Shown piece after piece: positions 3,261 through 42,102 of a stretch of DNA of 64,000 nt; position 1 is the first letter of the stretch; each line of letters opens with the position of its first letter. Source of the stretch: a virus; IMG/VR virus record IMGVR_UViG_3300021171_000007, positions 1 through 64,000 of that record; one strand, given 5' to 3'. The notes under the pieces are model-generated. The model was given only the letters and a program-made list of their open reading frames with translations, was not told the origin of the DNA and searched no databases. The position numbers were made by a program, and so were the translations under genes.

Positions 3261-4464
3261 GTCCTATACCTGGTAATCCTGAAGCTGGTGTAAATATTTG
3301 TTCTCCTGATATATTTTGTACTGGGATAGGATTTCCTTCACTATCATTACCAGGTGTTACAGCTTCAATAACTGTTATCCAATTTTGATCAGCAGCAGGG
3401 CTTCTGAAGCGCCCCATGTGTCTAACACTTACCACAGTAAATTGTCCTTGAAATGTAAGAATATTACCATGTTGAAATGTATTAAAAACTAGGCCTGGCA
3501 TAAATGTAAGACCACCGCTTTGTGTTGCAGAAGTCAAAATATTATTTGGCAATATTATTTGACTATTCGGAGAAATATCAGATCTTAAAGCAACTTTAAA
3601 TTGAATTTTGTTCGGGCCGATCCAACAAGGCTGTCCTATCAAATCTTGGAATTGTATCATTATTAATGCACTAGGTTGTGATGCATCAAAAATATTAAAA
3701 TTACCTTTTGAAGAATCAGCCATTACTCCTTGATAACCAGTTGTGTATGGTGTTCCAAGAACACTATGACTTAATACTTTAGCATAATCCAAATATTGTT
3801 CAAGAGATTGATAATATCCTTTATCATCATAATTAAGAGTAATATTTGGATTAATATTTAAATTAATTCCAACACCCGGAAAAGCAGTACTCAAAGCCTG
3901 TTGTATTGCTTGTCCTAATGGAGTGCCTTTAGGCATATTGTGAATAATATTTACAGGCTTAGTTGGTCCTCCAGAATTACCCATATTAGGTTTTAGAAAG
4001 AACGTAAGACTTAACTCAGTACCTGTCCACTCGCTTACACCTGGGAAAATCAAAGCATTGCACAATAGACCTTGATGCGCCACTTGGAAATTGGCAAGTG
4101 GTAGACCTTCAGTAAATCCTCCATATATAGCTAGTTGACAACCTGTAAAGTAAGATGATTGTGAAACTAAATTTTGTTGTATGCCATAAATTTTAACATA
4201 TCCATTTAAAGTTTGGCTACCTGGAGCAATTTGAATATCAAGCTCAATATCTAACGCTCCTGGATCGTTTTCATTATCAACAACACTACACCATTGCGCT
4301 CCAGATATACCTGCACCAGATATAGCAGCAAGTGCTGCTGGGACAGGTTGTCCTGCAAGTGATGCTAATTGTTGAACAGAATTAACAGAATCAGCAATAC
4401 CAGATATTTGAGCTAAACTGGTATAACTAATTCCTCCAGAAACTGTAAGCGCATAGAAACGCAT
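3253..4464 (-). CDS. Baseplate hub protein (gp27-like)
   Basis: 403 aa directly after tape measure; C-terminal GQFTVVSVRHMGRFR..WITVIEA pattern typical of hub proteins. Confidence 0.6.
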   Translation of the reverse strand: MRFYALTVSGGISYTSLAQISGIADSVNSVQQLASLAGQPVPAALAAISGAGISGAQWCSVVDNENDPGALDIELDIQIAPGSQTLNGYVKIYGIQQNLVSQSSYFTGCQLAIYGGFTEGLPLANFQVAHQGLLCNALIFPGVSEWTGTELSLTFFLKPNMGNSGGPTKPVNIIHNMPKGTPLGQAIQQALSTAFPGVGINLNINPNITLNYDDKGYYQSLEQYLDYAKVLSHSVLGTPYTTGYQGVMADSSKGNFNIFDASQPSALIMIQFQDLIGQPCWIGPNKIQFKVALRSDISPNSQIILPNNILTSATQSGGLTFMPGLVFNTFQHGNILTFQGQFTVVSVRHMGRFRSPAADQNWITVIEAVTPGNDSEGNPIPVQNISGEQIFTPASGLPGIGHA

Positions 4465-36207: not shown

Positions 36208-36270
36208 GACCGAAACTGGGGCGCCACAAAAGCTCTCCAGTCCTAGCGTAAGGCGCTAGCTGACGAGGTC
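36208..36270 (+). ncRNA. Type II hammerhead ribozyme 1 (predicted cut after C36242)
   Basis: GACC-GAAA-CTGG..CCAG-TC-CTAGCG-taagg-CGCTAG-CTGACGA-GGTC; complete catalytic core. Confidence 0.92.
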
Positions 36271-36289
36271 AGTAACAGGAGTTGTACTA

Positions 36290-36706
36290 ATGAAACTAGA
36301 TCTTAATATTCACATAAACTCTTGGTTGCATCGTAATGACGATGTAATCGACCCTATTCTCATTCAATTGAAGGGGAATAGCGAACGGATGATTGTAGAT
36401 ACTTCTGAGTATATTTTTATCAGTTTCGAGTATCCTCTTTCACAAGGACTCGATCTGCCGTTTAATGGCAAGAAGCCTTGGAGATTGTGCGATCTTATTG
36501 ATGCGATCTGCCAGGGATATGTGAAGATTTACGACGAGGAAGATGAGACCAGAACGCTTCCTGCTCAGTCCCCATTAGATTCTGTTCTGGTTAATCGTCC
36601 TAAGACTGACGGCAAGCATGGCATTTGGGGACACGATCTCAATGACCTTTATATTGAAGGCGTACATAAAGAAGAAGGAATTTGGCATCTCGATATTGGA
36701 TCATAA
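36290..36706 (+). CDS. Hypothetical protein (first gene after hammerhead 1)
   Basis: AGGAG SD directly after the ribozyme. Confidence 0.6.
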   Translation: MKLDLNIHINSWLHRNDDVIDPILIQLKGNSERMIVDTSEYIFISFEYPLSQGLDLPFNGKKPWRLCDLIDAICQGYVKIYDEEDETRTLPAQSPLDSVLVNRPKTDGKHGIWGHDLNDLYIEGVHKEEGIWHLDIGS

Positions 36707-36936
36707 TGGGAGGGAGCAATGGGATATAGAATGAGGCGTTGTGACAAATGTAAGGATTTGATAAACGGAAATGATGTTGCATTCAATATACATTTTAAAT
36801 GGTGCGGACATAATACTGGACTAAACTATATGAGTGAGAAAGATCTTAAAGTGCTGGAAGCTAAATTGGCGCAACCAAGGAAAGATTCACCAGAAGCGGC
36901 TTGGAATAAAATGCACAATTGGTCAGGAAAACAGTA

Positions 36937-36997
36937 GACCGAAACTGGAGTGCCACAAGCTCTCCAGTCGCAGCGTTCCTCGCTGCCTGACGAGGTC
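36937..36997 (+). ncRNA. Type II hammerhead ribozyme 2 (cut after C36969)
   Basis: GACC-GAAA-CTGGAG..CTCCAG-TC-GCAGCG-ttcct-CGCTGC-CTGACGA-GGTC. Confidence 0.92.
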
Positions 36998-37009
36998 AGT
37001 AATAGGAGA

Positions 37010-37240
37010 ATGAAAATGGCACGAGTAATTGTTCAAATTAAAACTGTCACATATTTAAATGGAGCTACTACTGAAATCGAAGATGAGTTACTTCGTGAAT
37101 TTACAGTAGTAACAAAAGGTCGTGGTGCAGTGAACATGCATTCAATGGCATCAATTATACAAGGTACGATCGAATCTGCTGAGGAAAGATTTAGGGTTGA
37201 AAAGACCAAAACATATTCAACAAATCGTAATATTGGTTAA
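37010..37240 (+). CDS. Hypothetical protein between hammerheads 2 and 3
   Basis: AGGAG at 37004; ATG at 37010 or 37016. Confidence 0.55.
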   Translation: MKMARVIVQIKTVTYLNGATTEIEDELLREFTVVTKGRGAVNMHSMASIIQGTIESAEERFRVEKTKTYSTNRNIG

Positions 37241-37243
37241 TTA

Positions 37244-37302
37244 GACCGAAACTGGCAGGTGCGATCTGCCAGTCGCAGCGTTTCTCGCTGCCTGACGAGG
37301 TC
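37244..37302 (+). ncRNA. Type II hammerhead ribozyme 3 (cut after C37274)
   Basis: GACC-GAAA-CTGGCAG-gtgcgat-CTGCCAG-TC-GCAGCG-tttct-CGCTGC-CTGACGA-GGTC. Confidence 0.93.
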
Positions 37303-37321
37303 AGTAACCAGGAGAACTAAA

Positions 37322-37603
37322 ATGAAACTTCCTCCAATAGAAGATGTTAAACTTACTGTCATAGGGCCGGATGATCCGCTTCCAGCGGGCTTCGAGCCCA
37401 TCACCATTGTCGTCAAGGACGTATCATGTCCAAAATGCGGTGCTGGAGAGATGCACCCGGATGGCAAGCATGTCCTAATTCGTGGATTCAAAGTCTGCGA
37501 TGCAAAAGGACATTGGTGGAGTCAATGTCTTGTCTGTGCCGGTGGGTACGACGCAGATTTGAACCCCGTTAAGGAGTTTGATCGCAACAAGGGATGGTTC
37601 TAA
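37322..37603 (+). CDS. Zinc-ribbon hypothetical protein
   Basis: CPKC...CLVC; SD after hammerhead 3. Confidence 0.55.
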   Translation: MKLPPIEDVKLTVIGPDDPLPAGFEPITIVVKDVSCPKCGAGEMHPDGKHVLIRGFKVCDAKGHWWSQCLVCAGGYDADLNPVKEFDRNKGWF

Positions 37604-38369
37604 TGCCAACCATAACAGTTGAACTCGAAGTAGCAATGGCTCAAGAGCTTGCCTCAGTAGCGCGTGGCAAAGCTAAGGGCATCGACTGGGTTCTGGAGAA
37701 TAAACCTCCAGTTCCCAAGAAGGCGTTGGAGCTTGACGAGCGAGCCAAAATTCTCGTTCAAGCTGCCACACTAATCGAGACTGCTCTTCACCAAAGAGCA
37801 CTCGGCAACGTCGTAAAGATGGGAGATAAAAATGTCCGATAAGGACCCATGGATCGTCTGCCCCGTGTGTGATGGGGAAGGCAAGACAGTCAATCCTAAT
37901 ATTGATGCGAACGGATTGACTCGCGAAGACTTCGATGAAGACCCAGACTTCAGAGAAGATTATATGAGCGGCATGTATGATATTACGTGCGCCGCTTGTT
38001 CTGGGAAGCGCGTTGTGAAACAAGCACGCATCACGGAATTAGAGCAGAATGCTGAAGATCGTCGGCTTGCTGCTCGTGAAAACGGCGACTATGAATCATA
38101 CAGTGTCGCAGGCGATTGGAGATACGGATGAAACTGGATAAACAACGCGAAAACCGAGCCAAGTACCCTTTCATTTGTGCTTGGGGCGCTAGACTTGGTT
38201 CTTTTCAATATTACATCGACGGTGAAGTTGCAAGAGCCATCGAAGATGGCGCTCCTGACCGTGCCATTTATAAGAGTGGCGACGGCAAGTGGCGCACCAT
38301 CGATGACTGCCAAAACGAAATGGCCAAAGAAGAATGTATAGCTTGGGTGGCCAAAAACTTTAAGAAATA

Positions 38370-38428
38370 GACCGAAACTGGTAGGTGCGATCTACCAGTC
38401 ACAGCGTAAGGCGCTGTCTGACGAGGTC
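38370..38428 (+). ncRNA. Type II hammerhead ribozyme 4 (cut after C38400)
   Basis: GACC-GAAA-CTGGTAG-gtgcgat-CTACCAG-TC-ACAGCG-taagg-CGCTGT-CTGACGA-GGTC. Confidence 0.93.
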
Positions 38429-38446
38429 AGTAATAGGAGTTGTATA

Positions 38447-38941
38447 ATGAAACAGGTTTCTGATTACTACAAGAAGTTCCTTCATAACGACGGAATTTCC
38501 AAAGAAATGTATAATGAAAACATCGAGCTTATTTACGATGTTGACGCAGAAATGTGGTATGCTTTTAATTACATATCACCAACGCATTACTACGAAGAAT
38601 TTGAAGATCTCATCGACGCGCTCGATTCAAATTCTGTTCTTTGGTGGCACGACTTGTCCGGCGACAATGATAAAGTTACGGACAGGAAGCAGATATTGGT
38701 AATTAAATTCCTCGATGACGAGGAAGACGAATGGACCATGTTCTACCATCACGGTATAATGGACGGCAAAGATGTAACAACATCTTGGGCTGCTCCATCT
38801 TCAGGAGAATTTCCTACTCCTGAATGCATTGTACGTCAGAAAGTATCTGTGGTGCAATGTGCTGTTGATGCCGCACAATTTATTTTTGATCAACCACATA
38901 TAAATAAGCCACGTAATCCATCACTTCGTTACGTCAAATAG
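38447..38941 (+). CDS. Acidic hypothetical protein between hammerheads 4 and 5
   Basis: SD after ribozyme 4; stop codon overlaps ribozyme 5. Confidence 0.6.
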   Translation: MKQVSDYYKKFLHNDGISKEMYNENIELIYDVDAEMWYAFNYISPTHYYEEFEDLIDALDSNSVLWWHDLSGDNDKVTDRKQILVIKFLDDEEDEWTMFYHHGIMDGKDVTTSWAAPSSGEFPTPECIVRQKVSVVQCAVDAAQFIFDQPHINKPRNPSLRYVK

Positions 38942-39007
38942 ATCGAAACTATGGGGCGCCACAGGAGCGTTCCATAGTCGCAGCGTAACTCGCTGCCTGA
39001 CGAGATC
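38941..39007 (+). ncRNA. Type II hammerhead ribozyme 5 (cut after C38979)
   Basis: GATC-GAAA-CTATGG..CCATAG-TC-GCAGCG-taact-CGCTGC-CTGACGA-GATC; compensatory change in stem II. Confidence 0.92.
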
Positions 39008-39258
39008 AGAAAAGGAGTAGGTAGCATGACGAAAGTAGATCCAAAATCTGCCTTTGAAGGGGACACCATTACTCCCGTTGAGAAGCCTAAGTCAAGGGCG
39101 CAGAAGGTTGCTGAGTACAGAGTAGCTCATCGAGCAGAGTACGAGCGAACTTGCCATGATGCACAATGCACTTGCACGCCAACTCGCGCGCAGATGTTGA
39201 TTATGGATAACTACCAAAGCCCACCAATCGACTAATTATAAACCTTACCATTGAACTT

Positions 39259-39285
39259 TGGAGCGCAGCAATGCGCTCCACTTTT
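39259..39285 (+). terminator. Terminator-like hairpin
   Basis: TGGAGCGCA-gcaa-TGCGCTCCA-CTTTT. Confidence 0.6.
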
Positions 39286-39948
39286 AGGCAATTTTGCCAC
39301 TACCAGGATAAGTAAAATGTCAAGAATAAAATCAGCTTTACGAGGTGTTGTCATAGTACCGGCTTGGGTCGTTATGCTGGCAACAGCCAGTTTTATCGTC
39401 GGAACTGGTATCTGGACTACACTGCTGATGAGCCGCTGTTCGATCTAACCAACCTAAACCAGGAGAATAAAAATGACACCTCAAGAGAGCAGGAAGAATT
39501 GGCTCGATAAGCAGCCAGTGCGCGAGAATCTTACTACTGAGCACGGATGGCCGATGCGAAATGATCATATTCTGCATCTGTTCGGTTTGCCATCAAATCA
39601 TCCTATTCCGCCGGATTATGAAGATATCAAACTAATCGGTAATGTTTGGGTTCGGATTTATCCACGCGGACAGGCGCACATTGGTAGACGTGTTGTGGCA
39701 GAATGTCCAAAATGTGAAAGATTGGTTTGTGCTGGCCATTTAATGCAACATATGAAGGTACATAATGATCGAGGAGCAAGCAAAATTTGAGAGATGGAAG
39801 TCCAGAGTAGACGTTTACCTGGAGCAGATGGTAAAGAAACTAAGTGGAGATTTTAAATATGATTATCTCCACGACTTCCAAAATAAGGTTCCACCCAGCA
39901 TAACAGCTACTCGCGTTGTAAAACGCCAGTACAGAAATGGAGTAGAAA

Positions 39949-40197
39949 ATGGTAGCAACAGCATACGGAGTCAAGGCAAATGGCAAAAAACTCCTCGATG
40001 AATATCGAGGAGACCGCATATATGGAGATTGTTTCATCATTCTTAAGGATGGAAAGGAAACATATGAGGTTGTTCTTTCCACTATCGGTGATATGTGCAA
40101 TTGCAAAGCTGGCGAACATGGTCATCAATGCAAACATGTTAAGATGGCACTAGAATATCATCACAAAATTAACGAAGCGATTGAGGCAGTCAAATAG
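39949..40197 (+). CDS. SWIM zinc-finger protein
   Basis: YEVV..CNC..CKH. Confidence 0.6.
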   Translation: MVATAYGVKANGKKLLDEYRGDRIYGDCFIILKDGKETYEVVLSTIGDMCNCKAGEHGHQCKHVKMALEYHHKINEAIEAVK

Positions 40198-40260
40198 ACC
40201 GAAACTTGGGGCGCCACAAGGCGTTCCAAGTCGTGCTGTAAGGCAGCACCTGACGAGGTC
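40197..40260 (+). ncRNA. Type II hammerhead ribozyme 6 (cut after C40232)
   Basis: GACC-GAAA-CTTGG..CCAAG-TC-GTGCTG-taagg-CAGCAC-CTGACGA-GGTC. Confidence 0.92.
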
Positions 40261-40435
40261 AGAAATGCCAAGGAGGTAGCACGTATGGGTGACCCAGAAG
40301 AGCATAAAGACGAAGAGTTGAGCCTTGAGAAAGAGACTCAAAAAGAGCCCAAAGAAGAGGCAAAAGAGCCAGTAAAAGAAGGTGATCCTCAACCAGAGGA
40401 AGATCCCAAAGTAGCGTAAATATAACGTCAACTTT

Positions 40436-40468
40436 CCGCTCCCATTTGGGAGGGTGGGAGCGGTTTTT
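40436..40468 (+). terminator. Intrinsic terminator
   Basis: CCGCTCCCA..TGGGAGCGG-TTTTT. Confidence 0.6.
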
Positions 40469-41088
40469 AGCTAGGGATGGAAAATGAAAAACATAAAAGA
40501 AATCACGTCTATGAAAGAGTTTGCTATCATTAGACGTGCTTTGGAATTATATGTTGCTACTCTAAGTGAAGAGTATGACAACAAACCAATGCGTGCCAAA
40601 CTTATAAAACTTGAAGAGGCGCAAGCCTGTTTGAGAGATTTCAACAAACTAGGAGAACAAAATGGCAAATCTAAAGAGTTACCCACCACTAAAACCTTGC
40701 CATTGCGGCAGCGGTATGGAAAGAGAAGCGAGATATGATGCTCGCGGTATTTTTCTCACGTATGTATGTGAGAAATGTGAGAAAGAAAAGTTATCACATT
40801 ATCGACCAGACGTTCTTACTGATTCAAATTATTGGCACGACGAGCCAATTGACGATTAAGACGCGGTAAACAGCGTTAATGCCCAACACACGATTGGCAG
40901 CGTAATGGGCAGACTTGCCATCTAAACCAACCCCCGTAAGATGGCTTTTTATTAATTTAGCGAATCACCTGGTTTTGCTTCAACTGCCCCCCAGTTGCTA
41001 AAAGCCAGGTGTAGACTTGCCGCCCACAGTCCCACAACTGTGGGCGGTCTTTTAGGCAATTTAGCCAACAACCAGGATTTAAAATGTC

Positions 41089-42102
41089 ATGTACCTTATG
41101 GACAGCATCGTAGAAACAGTTCATGAAGCTAAGAAACGAAAATTGATACAACATCCTGTCATACAAATCTTCCCAATACTAGAAGAGAAATTGAAAGGAT
41201 GTCCTCGGTTCTTGTTTGACGATACTGCGATCAGAACGGCTGTGGAGCTTACTCTGGGGCGCCCCAAGGTGCTTAGGGAAGCCATGGCACACCTTACCAT
41301 TCCATATCCTAAGATATGGGTAGAATGGCCAGAAGCAGGAAGAGAAAAATTGAGACAGACGTTCTCAATAGACTCTTACGAGTATCCTAATCGACCACTA
41401 CCAACTCGTCTTGGCTTTCTGCTAGAGACAGATGAGTCTGGTAGGAAAGGTCAGGTAACTTGGGTTTGGAGTAATCATTTCATTAAGAAAGGTGAACCTC
41501 CGAATGTTGGTCCAATATCTGCGTTCTTCGATTTGGATTTCAACTACAGCAAGTTGGTAAGTCCGACTTTTGTCAATAGTTTCTTGGATGCTAACTTAGC
41601 GCATATTTGGAAGGACAACAAAATCCAATTGGAGGCGCTCCTTAGCATCTGGGACACAGCTTACCATCAACCGTCCGAATGGGGTGCAAGATTTCTGAGA
41701 ATTCCTTCTCCAGATTCTCCGTATGGAAGCGTAGATTCTCGCGTAGCCAATTTCTATGCGGACGTTTATGGCGAATACATTATGGTTTGGTCATGCTTGT
41801 TATTGTTGACATCTTCCAGAAAGATAGTTGAATTGGAAGAAGTTGATATGTCTCAACTAAATAAAATACGCAGAAGAATGGATAAACCTCAAAGGTTAGA
41901 CCATACCACAGTTAGTCTCTATATCAATAGAGATAATGTGATACACAAACAAGGTGTACCACTAGGATTTGAACGAAAGAGTCCGCGTATCCATATGGTT
42001 GGGTCATATCTTAATAGACGTGGCGATAAACATTGGATAGTCCAGCCTTTCTGGCGCGGCGAAGGTGAGGTTATCAGTCGTCATGTAAAAGTGAAAGGAT
42101 AG
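41089..42102 (+). CDS. Hypothetical protein (337 aa)
   Basis: Long ORF; PYPKIWVE and SPRIHMV..WIVQPFWRG motifs of a recurring phage family; function not recognised. Confidence 0.6.
   Translation: MYLMDSIVETVHEAKKRKLIQHPVIQIFPILEEKLKGCPRFLFDDTAIRTAVELTLGRPKVLREAMAHLTIPYPKIWVEWPEAGREKLRQTFSIDSYEYPNRPLPTRLGFLLETDESGRKGQVTWVWSNHFIKKGEPPNVGPISAFFDLDFNYSKLVSPTFVNSFLDANLAHIWKDNKIQLEALLSIWDTAYHQPSEWGARFLRIPSPDSPYGSVDSRVANFYADVYGEYIMVWSCLLLLTSSRKIVELEEVDMSQLNKIRRRMDKPQRLDHTTVSLYINRDNVIHKQGVPLGFERKSPRIHMVGSYLNRRGDKHWIVQPFWRGEGEVISRHVKVKG

Follow-up and report, generated by a model that had tools for sequence, protein, structure and literature searches.

Predicted type II hammerhead ribozymes at the joints of gene blocks in a soil phage operon

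Clusters of hammerhead ribozymes that flank genes of prophages and phages were described by Perreault et al. (2011, PLoS Comput Biol; PMC3088659), who proposed that they process transcripts into operon- or gene-length mRNAs and raised spliced or circular RNAs as possible products; three tandem phage arrays cleaved in vitro (PMC3088659). A review from 2019 still lists the function of phage hammerheads as open (PMC6765202). Here we describe a comparable array in IMG/VR record IMGVR_UViG_3300021171_000007, the 79,611-bp genome (100% complete according to CheckV) of an uncultivated soil phage. In its first 64,000 nucleotides (nt), hereafter the window, six predicted hammerheads lie within 4.05 kb, all in the same orientation, and delimit blocks of one to five genes. 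As in the published arrays, several same-strand hammerheads flank single genes or short blocks of variable identity, and both this layout and the idea of circular products were already published in 2011 (PMC3088659). The family found here differs from those arrays and from the type II consensus, because its loop I and 3' tail form no pseudoknot and the Rfam model RF02276 misses it; it also differs from the published arrays in a conserved hairpin that would sequester the catalytic core. Our literature search found no description of cassette-indel breakpoints mapped into ribozyme boxes, and nothing linking phage hammerheads to RtcB circles or to DNA recombination.

Three other systems bear comparison with this locus. 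In the insulator RiboJ (PMC6206723), an engineered sTRSV ribozyme of type III follows a promoter, whereas those in the window are natural type II ribozymes lying between cistrons. In both, as we read the sequences, cleavage would remove the upstream context, leave a standard, hairpin-capped 5' end and expose the ribosome-binding site; unlike in RiboJ, a second hairpin, of putative role, is formed in the window from the ribozyme core itself. Retrozymes and viroid-like circular RNAs also have tandem same-strand hammerheads, 5'-OH and 2',3'-cyclic-phosphate ends and permuted halves. However, they are non-coding eukaryotic units with type III ribozymes and rod-like folds, and their circles have been demonstrated, whereas the units in the window are protein-coding blocks of a phage mRNA, with type II ribozymes, only 4 bp to hold the ends together and an unselected compatibility of those ends. 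Integron arrays and the boundary sequences of mosaic phages, for their part, share with this locus promoterless accessory blocks in one orientation, a repeated structured separator and the turnover of whole blocks. Unlike integrons, the 79.6-kb genome has no match to Phage_integrase (PF00589), no attC-type site was found and the repeats are ribozymes; in contrast to both integrons and mosaic boundaries, the repeat is under selection as RNA, and exchange probably proceeds by ordinary homology-assisted recombination.

Six hammerheads between a stop codon and a Shine-Dalgarno sequence

The hammerhead core comprises C3 U4 G5 A6 N7 G8 A9, G12 A13 A14, the A15.1-U16.1 pair and H17 at the cleavage site. 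The boxes CUGACGA, GAAA and GUC are in the correct register in all six copies of the window, and the order of motifs is the same in every copy: GAYC-GAAA, the stem III hairpin, GUC with the predicted cleavage site at its 3' side, the stem I hairpin and CUGACGA-GRUC (CUGAYGA in relatives). With loops on stems I and III and an open stem II, these elements belong to type II. Related phages keep the same core; the few exceptions, at position 17 and in the 16.2/16.1 context, are known variants that the ribozyme tolerates. The pattern CGAAAC..GTH..CTGANGA has six matches, against 0.06 expected.

Rfam 15 returned no hammerhead in this region at its gathering score, and neither the whole genome, at E<=10, nor a 91-nt excerpt contained a match to its type II model RF02276. 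Five of the copies remained without an Rfam 15 hammerhead at every threshold tried; the sole trace was a weak type III match to the fourth copy, at 38393 (20.1 bits, E 1.9), in a different register. This miss is a limit of the curated model and no evidence against the fold. Since Rfam offered no usable match, we built our own covariance model, R1, from nine gap-free copies. R1 retrieves the six window copies with 57-75 bits and no further copy in the 79.6-kb genome. All are on the plus strand: hammerhead 1 at 36208-36270 (type II; cleavage predicted after 36242; 59.0 bits), hammerhead 2 at 36937-36997 (after 36969; 57.2 bits), hammerhead 3 at 37244-37302 (after 37274; 73 bits), hammerhead 4 at 38370-38428 (after 38400; 75.3 bits), hammerhead 5 at 38941-39007 (after 38979; 59.3 bits), with stem II covaried to GAUC/GAUC, and hammerhead 6 at 40197-40260 (after 40232; 64 bits). 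The six cleavage positions coincide exactly with the bounds of five segments drawn by a first-pass annotation made from the sequence alone, and the open reading frames agree with its claim that each segment holds only whole small genes. Its description of the repeats as near-identical was too strong, as the six copies are 60-87% identical in pair comparisons; the core boxes alone are invariant and the stems covary.

Relatives were retrieved from IMG/VR and JGI metagenomes via a conserved 337-amino-acid (aa) protein encoded at 41089-42099, and the resulting comparison set consists of nine distinct soil phage genomes, the window included. Each relative (designated by an L number where needed) contains two to seven R1 copies. 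An alignment of 53 copies from the window and its relatives (38 distinct rows) shows standard pairing in 99.4% of 686 cells, with changes on both sides at 14 of 19 pairs. The covariation score was 0.63, compared with 0.20 for shuffled alignments, none of which reached 0.63 in 500 trials, and control partners slid by one to three columns were paired in only 21-48% of cases. These compensatory changes, together with the slid controls, indicate that selection acts on the folded RNA. Judging from sequence conservation and covariation, the hammerheads look like real type II ribozymes, for which self-cleavage is predicted.

The six hammerheads occupy the short gaps between gene blocks in one rightward operon of small ORFan genes, and their placement within these gaps is narrowly constrained. 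Among 41 distinct copies, 32 have an upstream stop codon that ends at position -1 or 0, counted from the first base of stem II, and 36 have a Shine-Dalgarno (SD) sequence; the leader from ribozyme to start codon has a median length of 19 nt. For instance, the upstream TAA stop adjoins stem II of hammerhead 1, with an SD sequence, AGGAG, 8 nt 3' of the ribozyme, and in hammerhead 2 the first G of stem II also belongs to the upstream TAG stop. Hammerhead 6 is orthologous to the last hammerhead of L127, L128, L129 and L131.

A second structure is superimposed on the ribozyme. The core strand CUGAY is able to pair with RUCAG just downstream, in which RUC is the stem II strand and is followed by a conserved AG, and this hairpin competes with the 4-bp stem II for the same strand. 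In hammerhead 1 it reads CUGAC-GAG-GUCAG (36260-36272), and the equivalent 13 nt are found in each hammerhead. All five pairs can form in 36 of 43 distinct copies, as compared with 1.4 for shuffled tails, and N7 and position 10.2 change together, being C-G in 21 copies, U-A in 10 and mismatched in 5. RUCAG is displaced 3 nt downstream in six copies, three of them in L146, where GACC as the stem II strand is unable to pair with the core. Because the pairing is conserved even in the displaced copies, the hairpin appears to be selected in its own right. Its role may be to lock the product of cleavage, to shield the 5' end, to expose the SD sequence or to gate cleavage. Fold prediction gives the new 5' end after cleavage as two adjacent hairpins with the SD sequence unpaired.

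Turnover of whole blocks among related phages

Maps of gene families showed that the related operons contain the same families in varied orders and combinations, with ribozymes at the joints. Across the comparison set, gene adjacency was broken at ribozyme junctions in 203 of 231 comparisons, versus 653 of 1005 at other junctions. Within arrays, the mean fraction of broken adjacencies was 0.895 for hammerhead junctions and 0.723 for the others (p=0.0006, by permutation of labels within genomes), a p-value that overstates independence because the genomes share ancestry. When an adjacency was conserved, the presence or absence of a ribozyme was nearly always conserved with it (34 of 35 cases). 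The gene-adjacency test replaced a count of blastn block boundaries over all pairs, which had given a modest enrichment (2.9 versus 2.0 per junction).

A clear case is that of L127 and L128, which are 97% identical in their shared blocks and differ by two whole-cassette indels, both with the crossover inside ribozyme boxes. L127 contains an extra one-gene cassette between two ribozymes; the single ribozyme of L128 at this location corresponds to the upstream copy on its left and to the downstream copy on its right, and the switch occurs within the shared stretch CCAGTC-stem I-CTGACGAGGTCAGTAAC. Conversely, L128 contains an extra two-gene cassette of 1.6 kb, with the crossover in the 5' box AGAYCGAAACT.

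Comparisons of these two genomes with the window extend the same pattern to its cassettes. Cassette 1 (36274-36936), with genes at 36290-36706 (138 aa) and 36719-36937 (72 aa), is missing from both L127 and L128, and the crossover of this indel lies in CTGACGAGGTCAGTAAYAGGAG. Cassette 2 (37010-37240), with one gene of 76 aa, is present in L127 and missing from L128, with the crossover in the 3' half of the hammerhead. Cassette 3 (37322-38370) contains genes at 37322-37603, 37594-37842, 37832-38131 and 38128-38370, the last three of which are common to L127 and L128; the first is replaced there. The slot of cassette 4 (38447-38941), occupied in the window by a single ORFan gene of 164 aa, contains in both relatives an unrelated three-gene cassette; similarity breaks off within hammerhead 4, between its stems III and I, and returns at the 5' edge of hammerhead 5. 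The ribozymes themselves can be chimeric, as hammerhead 3 of the window and hammerhead 2 of L127, which share the upstream gene, are 100% identical in the 5' half and 59% identical in the stem I half.

As deduced from these sequence comparisons, the joints at which whole blocks were inserted, deleted or replaced coincide with conserved ribozyme boxes, and the likely cause is homology-assisted recombination between ribozyme copies. The ribozymes are favoured joints and no dedicated recombination system. This agrees with the suggestion of the first-pass annotation that genes are gained and lost at the DNA level, as the whole-cassette indels and replacements have their breakpoints inside or at the edges of ribozymes, and the gene content of relatives, which it had proposed to compare, differs.

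Two other lines of comparison were set aside. A general co-segregation of ribozyme halves with the adjoining genes was rejected (means of 0.73/0.77, compared with 0.71/0.77), leaving individual chimeras only. Likewise, contig joints and loose ends on the window were not used as independent evidence, since they stem from relatives that co-occur with the phage and have ribozyme halves in common; the loose end at 38431, for instance, is the leader of L146.

A two-gene cassette precedes the last hammerhead in two relatives only, L128 (7320-8918; 320 and 204 aa) and L129 (7734-9209; 289 and 195 aa). Their proteins are 29-35% identical over parts and the flanking DNA is 75-80% identical. We rejected the possibility that these cassettes are unrelated cargo, as BLASTP shows their products to be distant homologues; the cargo is fast-evolving and has no family assignment.

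Gene content, a second intergenic module and further arrays

The largest block, cassette 5 (39026-40197), contains genes at 39026-39235, 39317-39448, 39473-39790, 39765-40001 and 39949-40197, and is split internally by a hairpin module at 39259-39299. After hammerhead 6, the operon ends (40285-40463, plus strand) with a last small gene of 44 aa (40285-40419) and a strong intrinsic terminator at 40436-40463, consisting of a 12-bp stem followed by TTTTT. Searches in Pfam, PHROGs and the ESM Atlas assigned no function to the cassette proteins. Those of cassette 1 belong to no Pfam or PHROG family, and a search for its 138-aa protein in more distant genomes led back to this group of relatives alone.

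The phage encodes, among others, a terminase small subunit, a DNA polymerase, a ligase and a thymidylate synthase, and sequencing-run listings trace the locus to two soil DNA metagenomes and to no RNA run. Neither the region nor a single ribozyme had a blastn match among 50,697 public phage records, and the nearest DNA polymerases among public phages are at most 35% identical.

The module within cassette 5 starts with a hairpin at 39259-39280, which the first-pass annotation had described as terminator-like; the hairpin is real (dG -17 kcal/mol) and is followed by ACUUUUAGG. The complete intergenic module (39259-39299, plus strand) consists of a GC hairpin and then TTTTAGGCAATTTTGCCA, with a second copy at 41020-41067. 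Defined as a GC-rich hairpin with TTTTAGGCAATTTWGCCA, it occurs once or twice per operon, always on the plus strand, with two matches in the window against 0.2 expected; copies in relatives include L136 (3983-4051), L134 (4761-4800) and L129 (6429-6446). The junction between gene families 16 and 23 contains a hammerhead in L129 and the hairpin module in L136, and the hairpin of the module can nearly match stem III of a hammerhead (L134 4761-4781 compared with L135 7987-8008). The module could be a terminator, or a site for a host RNase, with the same punctuating job.

Hammerheads also occur outside this array. L127 contains an extra, AT-rich hammerhead of the same family (3405-3481, minus strand; 52.7 bits), located outside the array in a leftward-transcribed region. 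In addition, seven unrelated IMG/VR contigs (L030, L036, L100, L032, L077, L115 and L123) have their own arrays of two to six type II hammerheads, with a lineage-specific stem II, which start directly after a stop codon and end a short distance upstream of an SD sequence. The same CUGAU:RUCAG hairpin is present in L123, and L036 has a different tail pairing with the core, GACG:CGUC.

A probable insulation of exchangeable blocks and alternative readings

Starting from sequence, covariation, placement and breakpoints, which are direct observations on these genomes, we infer cleavage in vivo, stabilization, insulation and the mechanism of recombination. We think it probable that the ribozymes cut the operon transcript into hairpin-capped block mRNAs with a standard leader, and that their conserved boxes double as joints for recombination. 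Each ribozyme would self-cleave the polycistronic transcript. The upstream block would then end in its stop codon, GAYCGAAAC, the stem III hairpin and GUC with a 2',3'-cyclic phosphate, and the downstream block would begin with a 5'-OH, followed by the stem I hairpin, the CUGAY:RUCAG hairpin, a free SD sequence and the start codon. As cleavage would occur at a fixed element, every block would receive the same leader and trailer whatever its neighbours, and its expression would be independent of them, as with the RiboJ insulator. At the DNA level, an element of about 60 nt recurs between blocks and among relatives, so that homology-assisted recombination at its invariant boxes would insert, delete or swap whole blocks; insulation would leave such exchanges harmless to expression.

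Several observations count against this explanation. Breakpoints are also found at ribozyme-free junctions, with a broken fraction of 0.72, and inside blocks; as ribozyme-free junctions also break often, the ribozymes are enriched joints and not exclusive ones, and the shared ancestry of the genomes tempers the contrast further. Breakpoints within conserved boxes could also result from selection that keeps only those recombinants with intact ribozymes. A tyrosine integrase (PF00589), RecT, ERF and Rad52 had no Pfam match in the 79.6-kb genome, in a search that did not cover other recombinase families. As for the RNA, the inactive form with the competing hairpin is the nearest-neighbour minimum-free-energy fold of five of the six window copies, hammerhead 4 being the only one whose minimum-free-energy fold is the active three-way junction. 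Published type II hammerheads mostly have a pseudoknot of at least 4 bp between loop I and the 3' tail, which makes them faster, although it is not obligatory (PMC3088659). In our family the longest such helix averages 3.0 bp, versus 2.9 with shuffled tails, and reaches at least 4 bp in 13 of 43 copies. Given the inactive minimum-free-energy fold and the absent pseudoknot, cleavage could be slow or conditional.

Conditional cleavage is the core of an alternative that we consider rather unlikely, in which the ribozymes act as switches: the ribosome that terminates upstream and covers GAYCGAAAC and stem III, together with the core-sequestering hairpin, would set the fraction of transcripts that is cut and so tune the stability or translation of each block. 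The stop codons that adjoin or overlap stem II in 32 of 41 copies, the conservation of the competing hairpin with the covariation of N7 and position 10.2, and the predominance of the inactive fold all fit such a switch, and Perreault et al. had suggested that cleavage in phages may be regulated (PMC3088659). However, this is a reading from sequence alone, a stop codon next to the ribozyme may reflect mere compaction of the genome, and the effect of the hairpin could be limited to the cleaved product, which it would trap or whose 5' end it would protect. A very different view, that these are selfish or neutral intergenic repeats spreading by copying, or purely DNA sites, with no function for the phage at the RNA level, could account for the variation in copy number from two to seven among relatives, for an orthologous junction where L129 has a hammerhead but L134 and L136 do not, and for those relatives that carry the same gene families without hammerheads between them. 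Yet the compensatory changes in all three stems and the invariant core show that selection acts on the folded RNA and not on the sequence as DNA, the copies are always in sense orientation and fixed between stop codon and SD sequence, and 34 of 35 conserved adjacencies agree in hammerhead status; we therefore hold this view to be most improbable.

The ends that hammerheads would leave, 5'-OH and 2',3'-cyclic phosphate, are substrates of RtcB. A block cut at both sides could be ligated into a circular mRNA, with a chimeric hammerhead rebuilt at its junction, as the first-pass annotation had proposed; host RtcB or the reverse reaction of the ribozyme would join the ends. Apart from the suitable end chemistry, the permuted halves at block ends can formally rebuild a hammerhead, with a fully paired stem II in four of the five window segments; a thermodynamic model predicts 70% end pairing for segment 3, and the CUGAY:RUCAG hairpin could shield a re-ligated junction from renewed self-cutting. 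Against circles, the ends would be held by the 4-bp stem II alone, with the conserved hairpin competing for the strand, and a search for RtcB in the phage genome found none. Moreover, cognate stem II is fully paired in all 43 ribozymes, and rebuilt stem II in 25 of 34 blocks across the nine genomes, compared with 25.4 under random order; compatibility of block ends is thus no better than that of a random order, indicating that it is not selected for. Partition-function estimates of end pairing were 0.001, 0.08, 0.70, 0.017 and <=0.02 for segments 1 to 5, a spread that reveals no consistent design for circles, and segment 5 has both an A.C mismatch in the rebuilt stem II and the internal terminator-like module at 39259-39299. 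Perreault et al. (2011) sought circular or spliced products of their arrays and detected none (PMC3088659). If circles did form, this would be the first natural case in a bacterial virus of hammerheads producing circular mRNAs that encode proteins, but circles are unsupported and not needed for the insulated-block explanation, and we consider them very unlikely. Thus, from the earlier interpretation, the turnover of cassettes in DNA holds, and the circular mRNAs, considered as early as 2011, are unsupported.

We would go further only tentatively, and with somewhat more doubt than conviction, to the idea that arrays of this kind are an integrase-free, plug-and-play platform for cassettes, in which one RNA element would both insulate expression and supply the homology for exchange. 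What the many hammerheads of phage genomes do has been an open question since 2011, and this locus with its eight sequenced relatives provides a compact natural series, in which operons have two to seven ribozymes and near-identical genomes form pairs set apart by single cassettes. The series is suited to ask whether hammerheads insulate genes, whether the hairpin controls or locks cleavage and whether ribozyme homology drives exchange. Of particular interest are two lineage-specific features, the core-sequestering hairpin and the hairpin module that takes the place of a hammerhead at one orthologous junction. Standard annotation with Rfam would miss whole lineages of phage hammerheads such as this one. 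By analogy, the array would be a natural counterpart of the synthetic RiboJ insulator and, if the insulator reading is true, phages reached the design principle of RiboJ long before synthetic biology.

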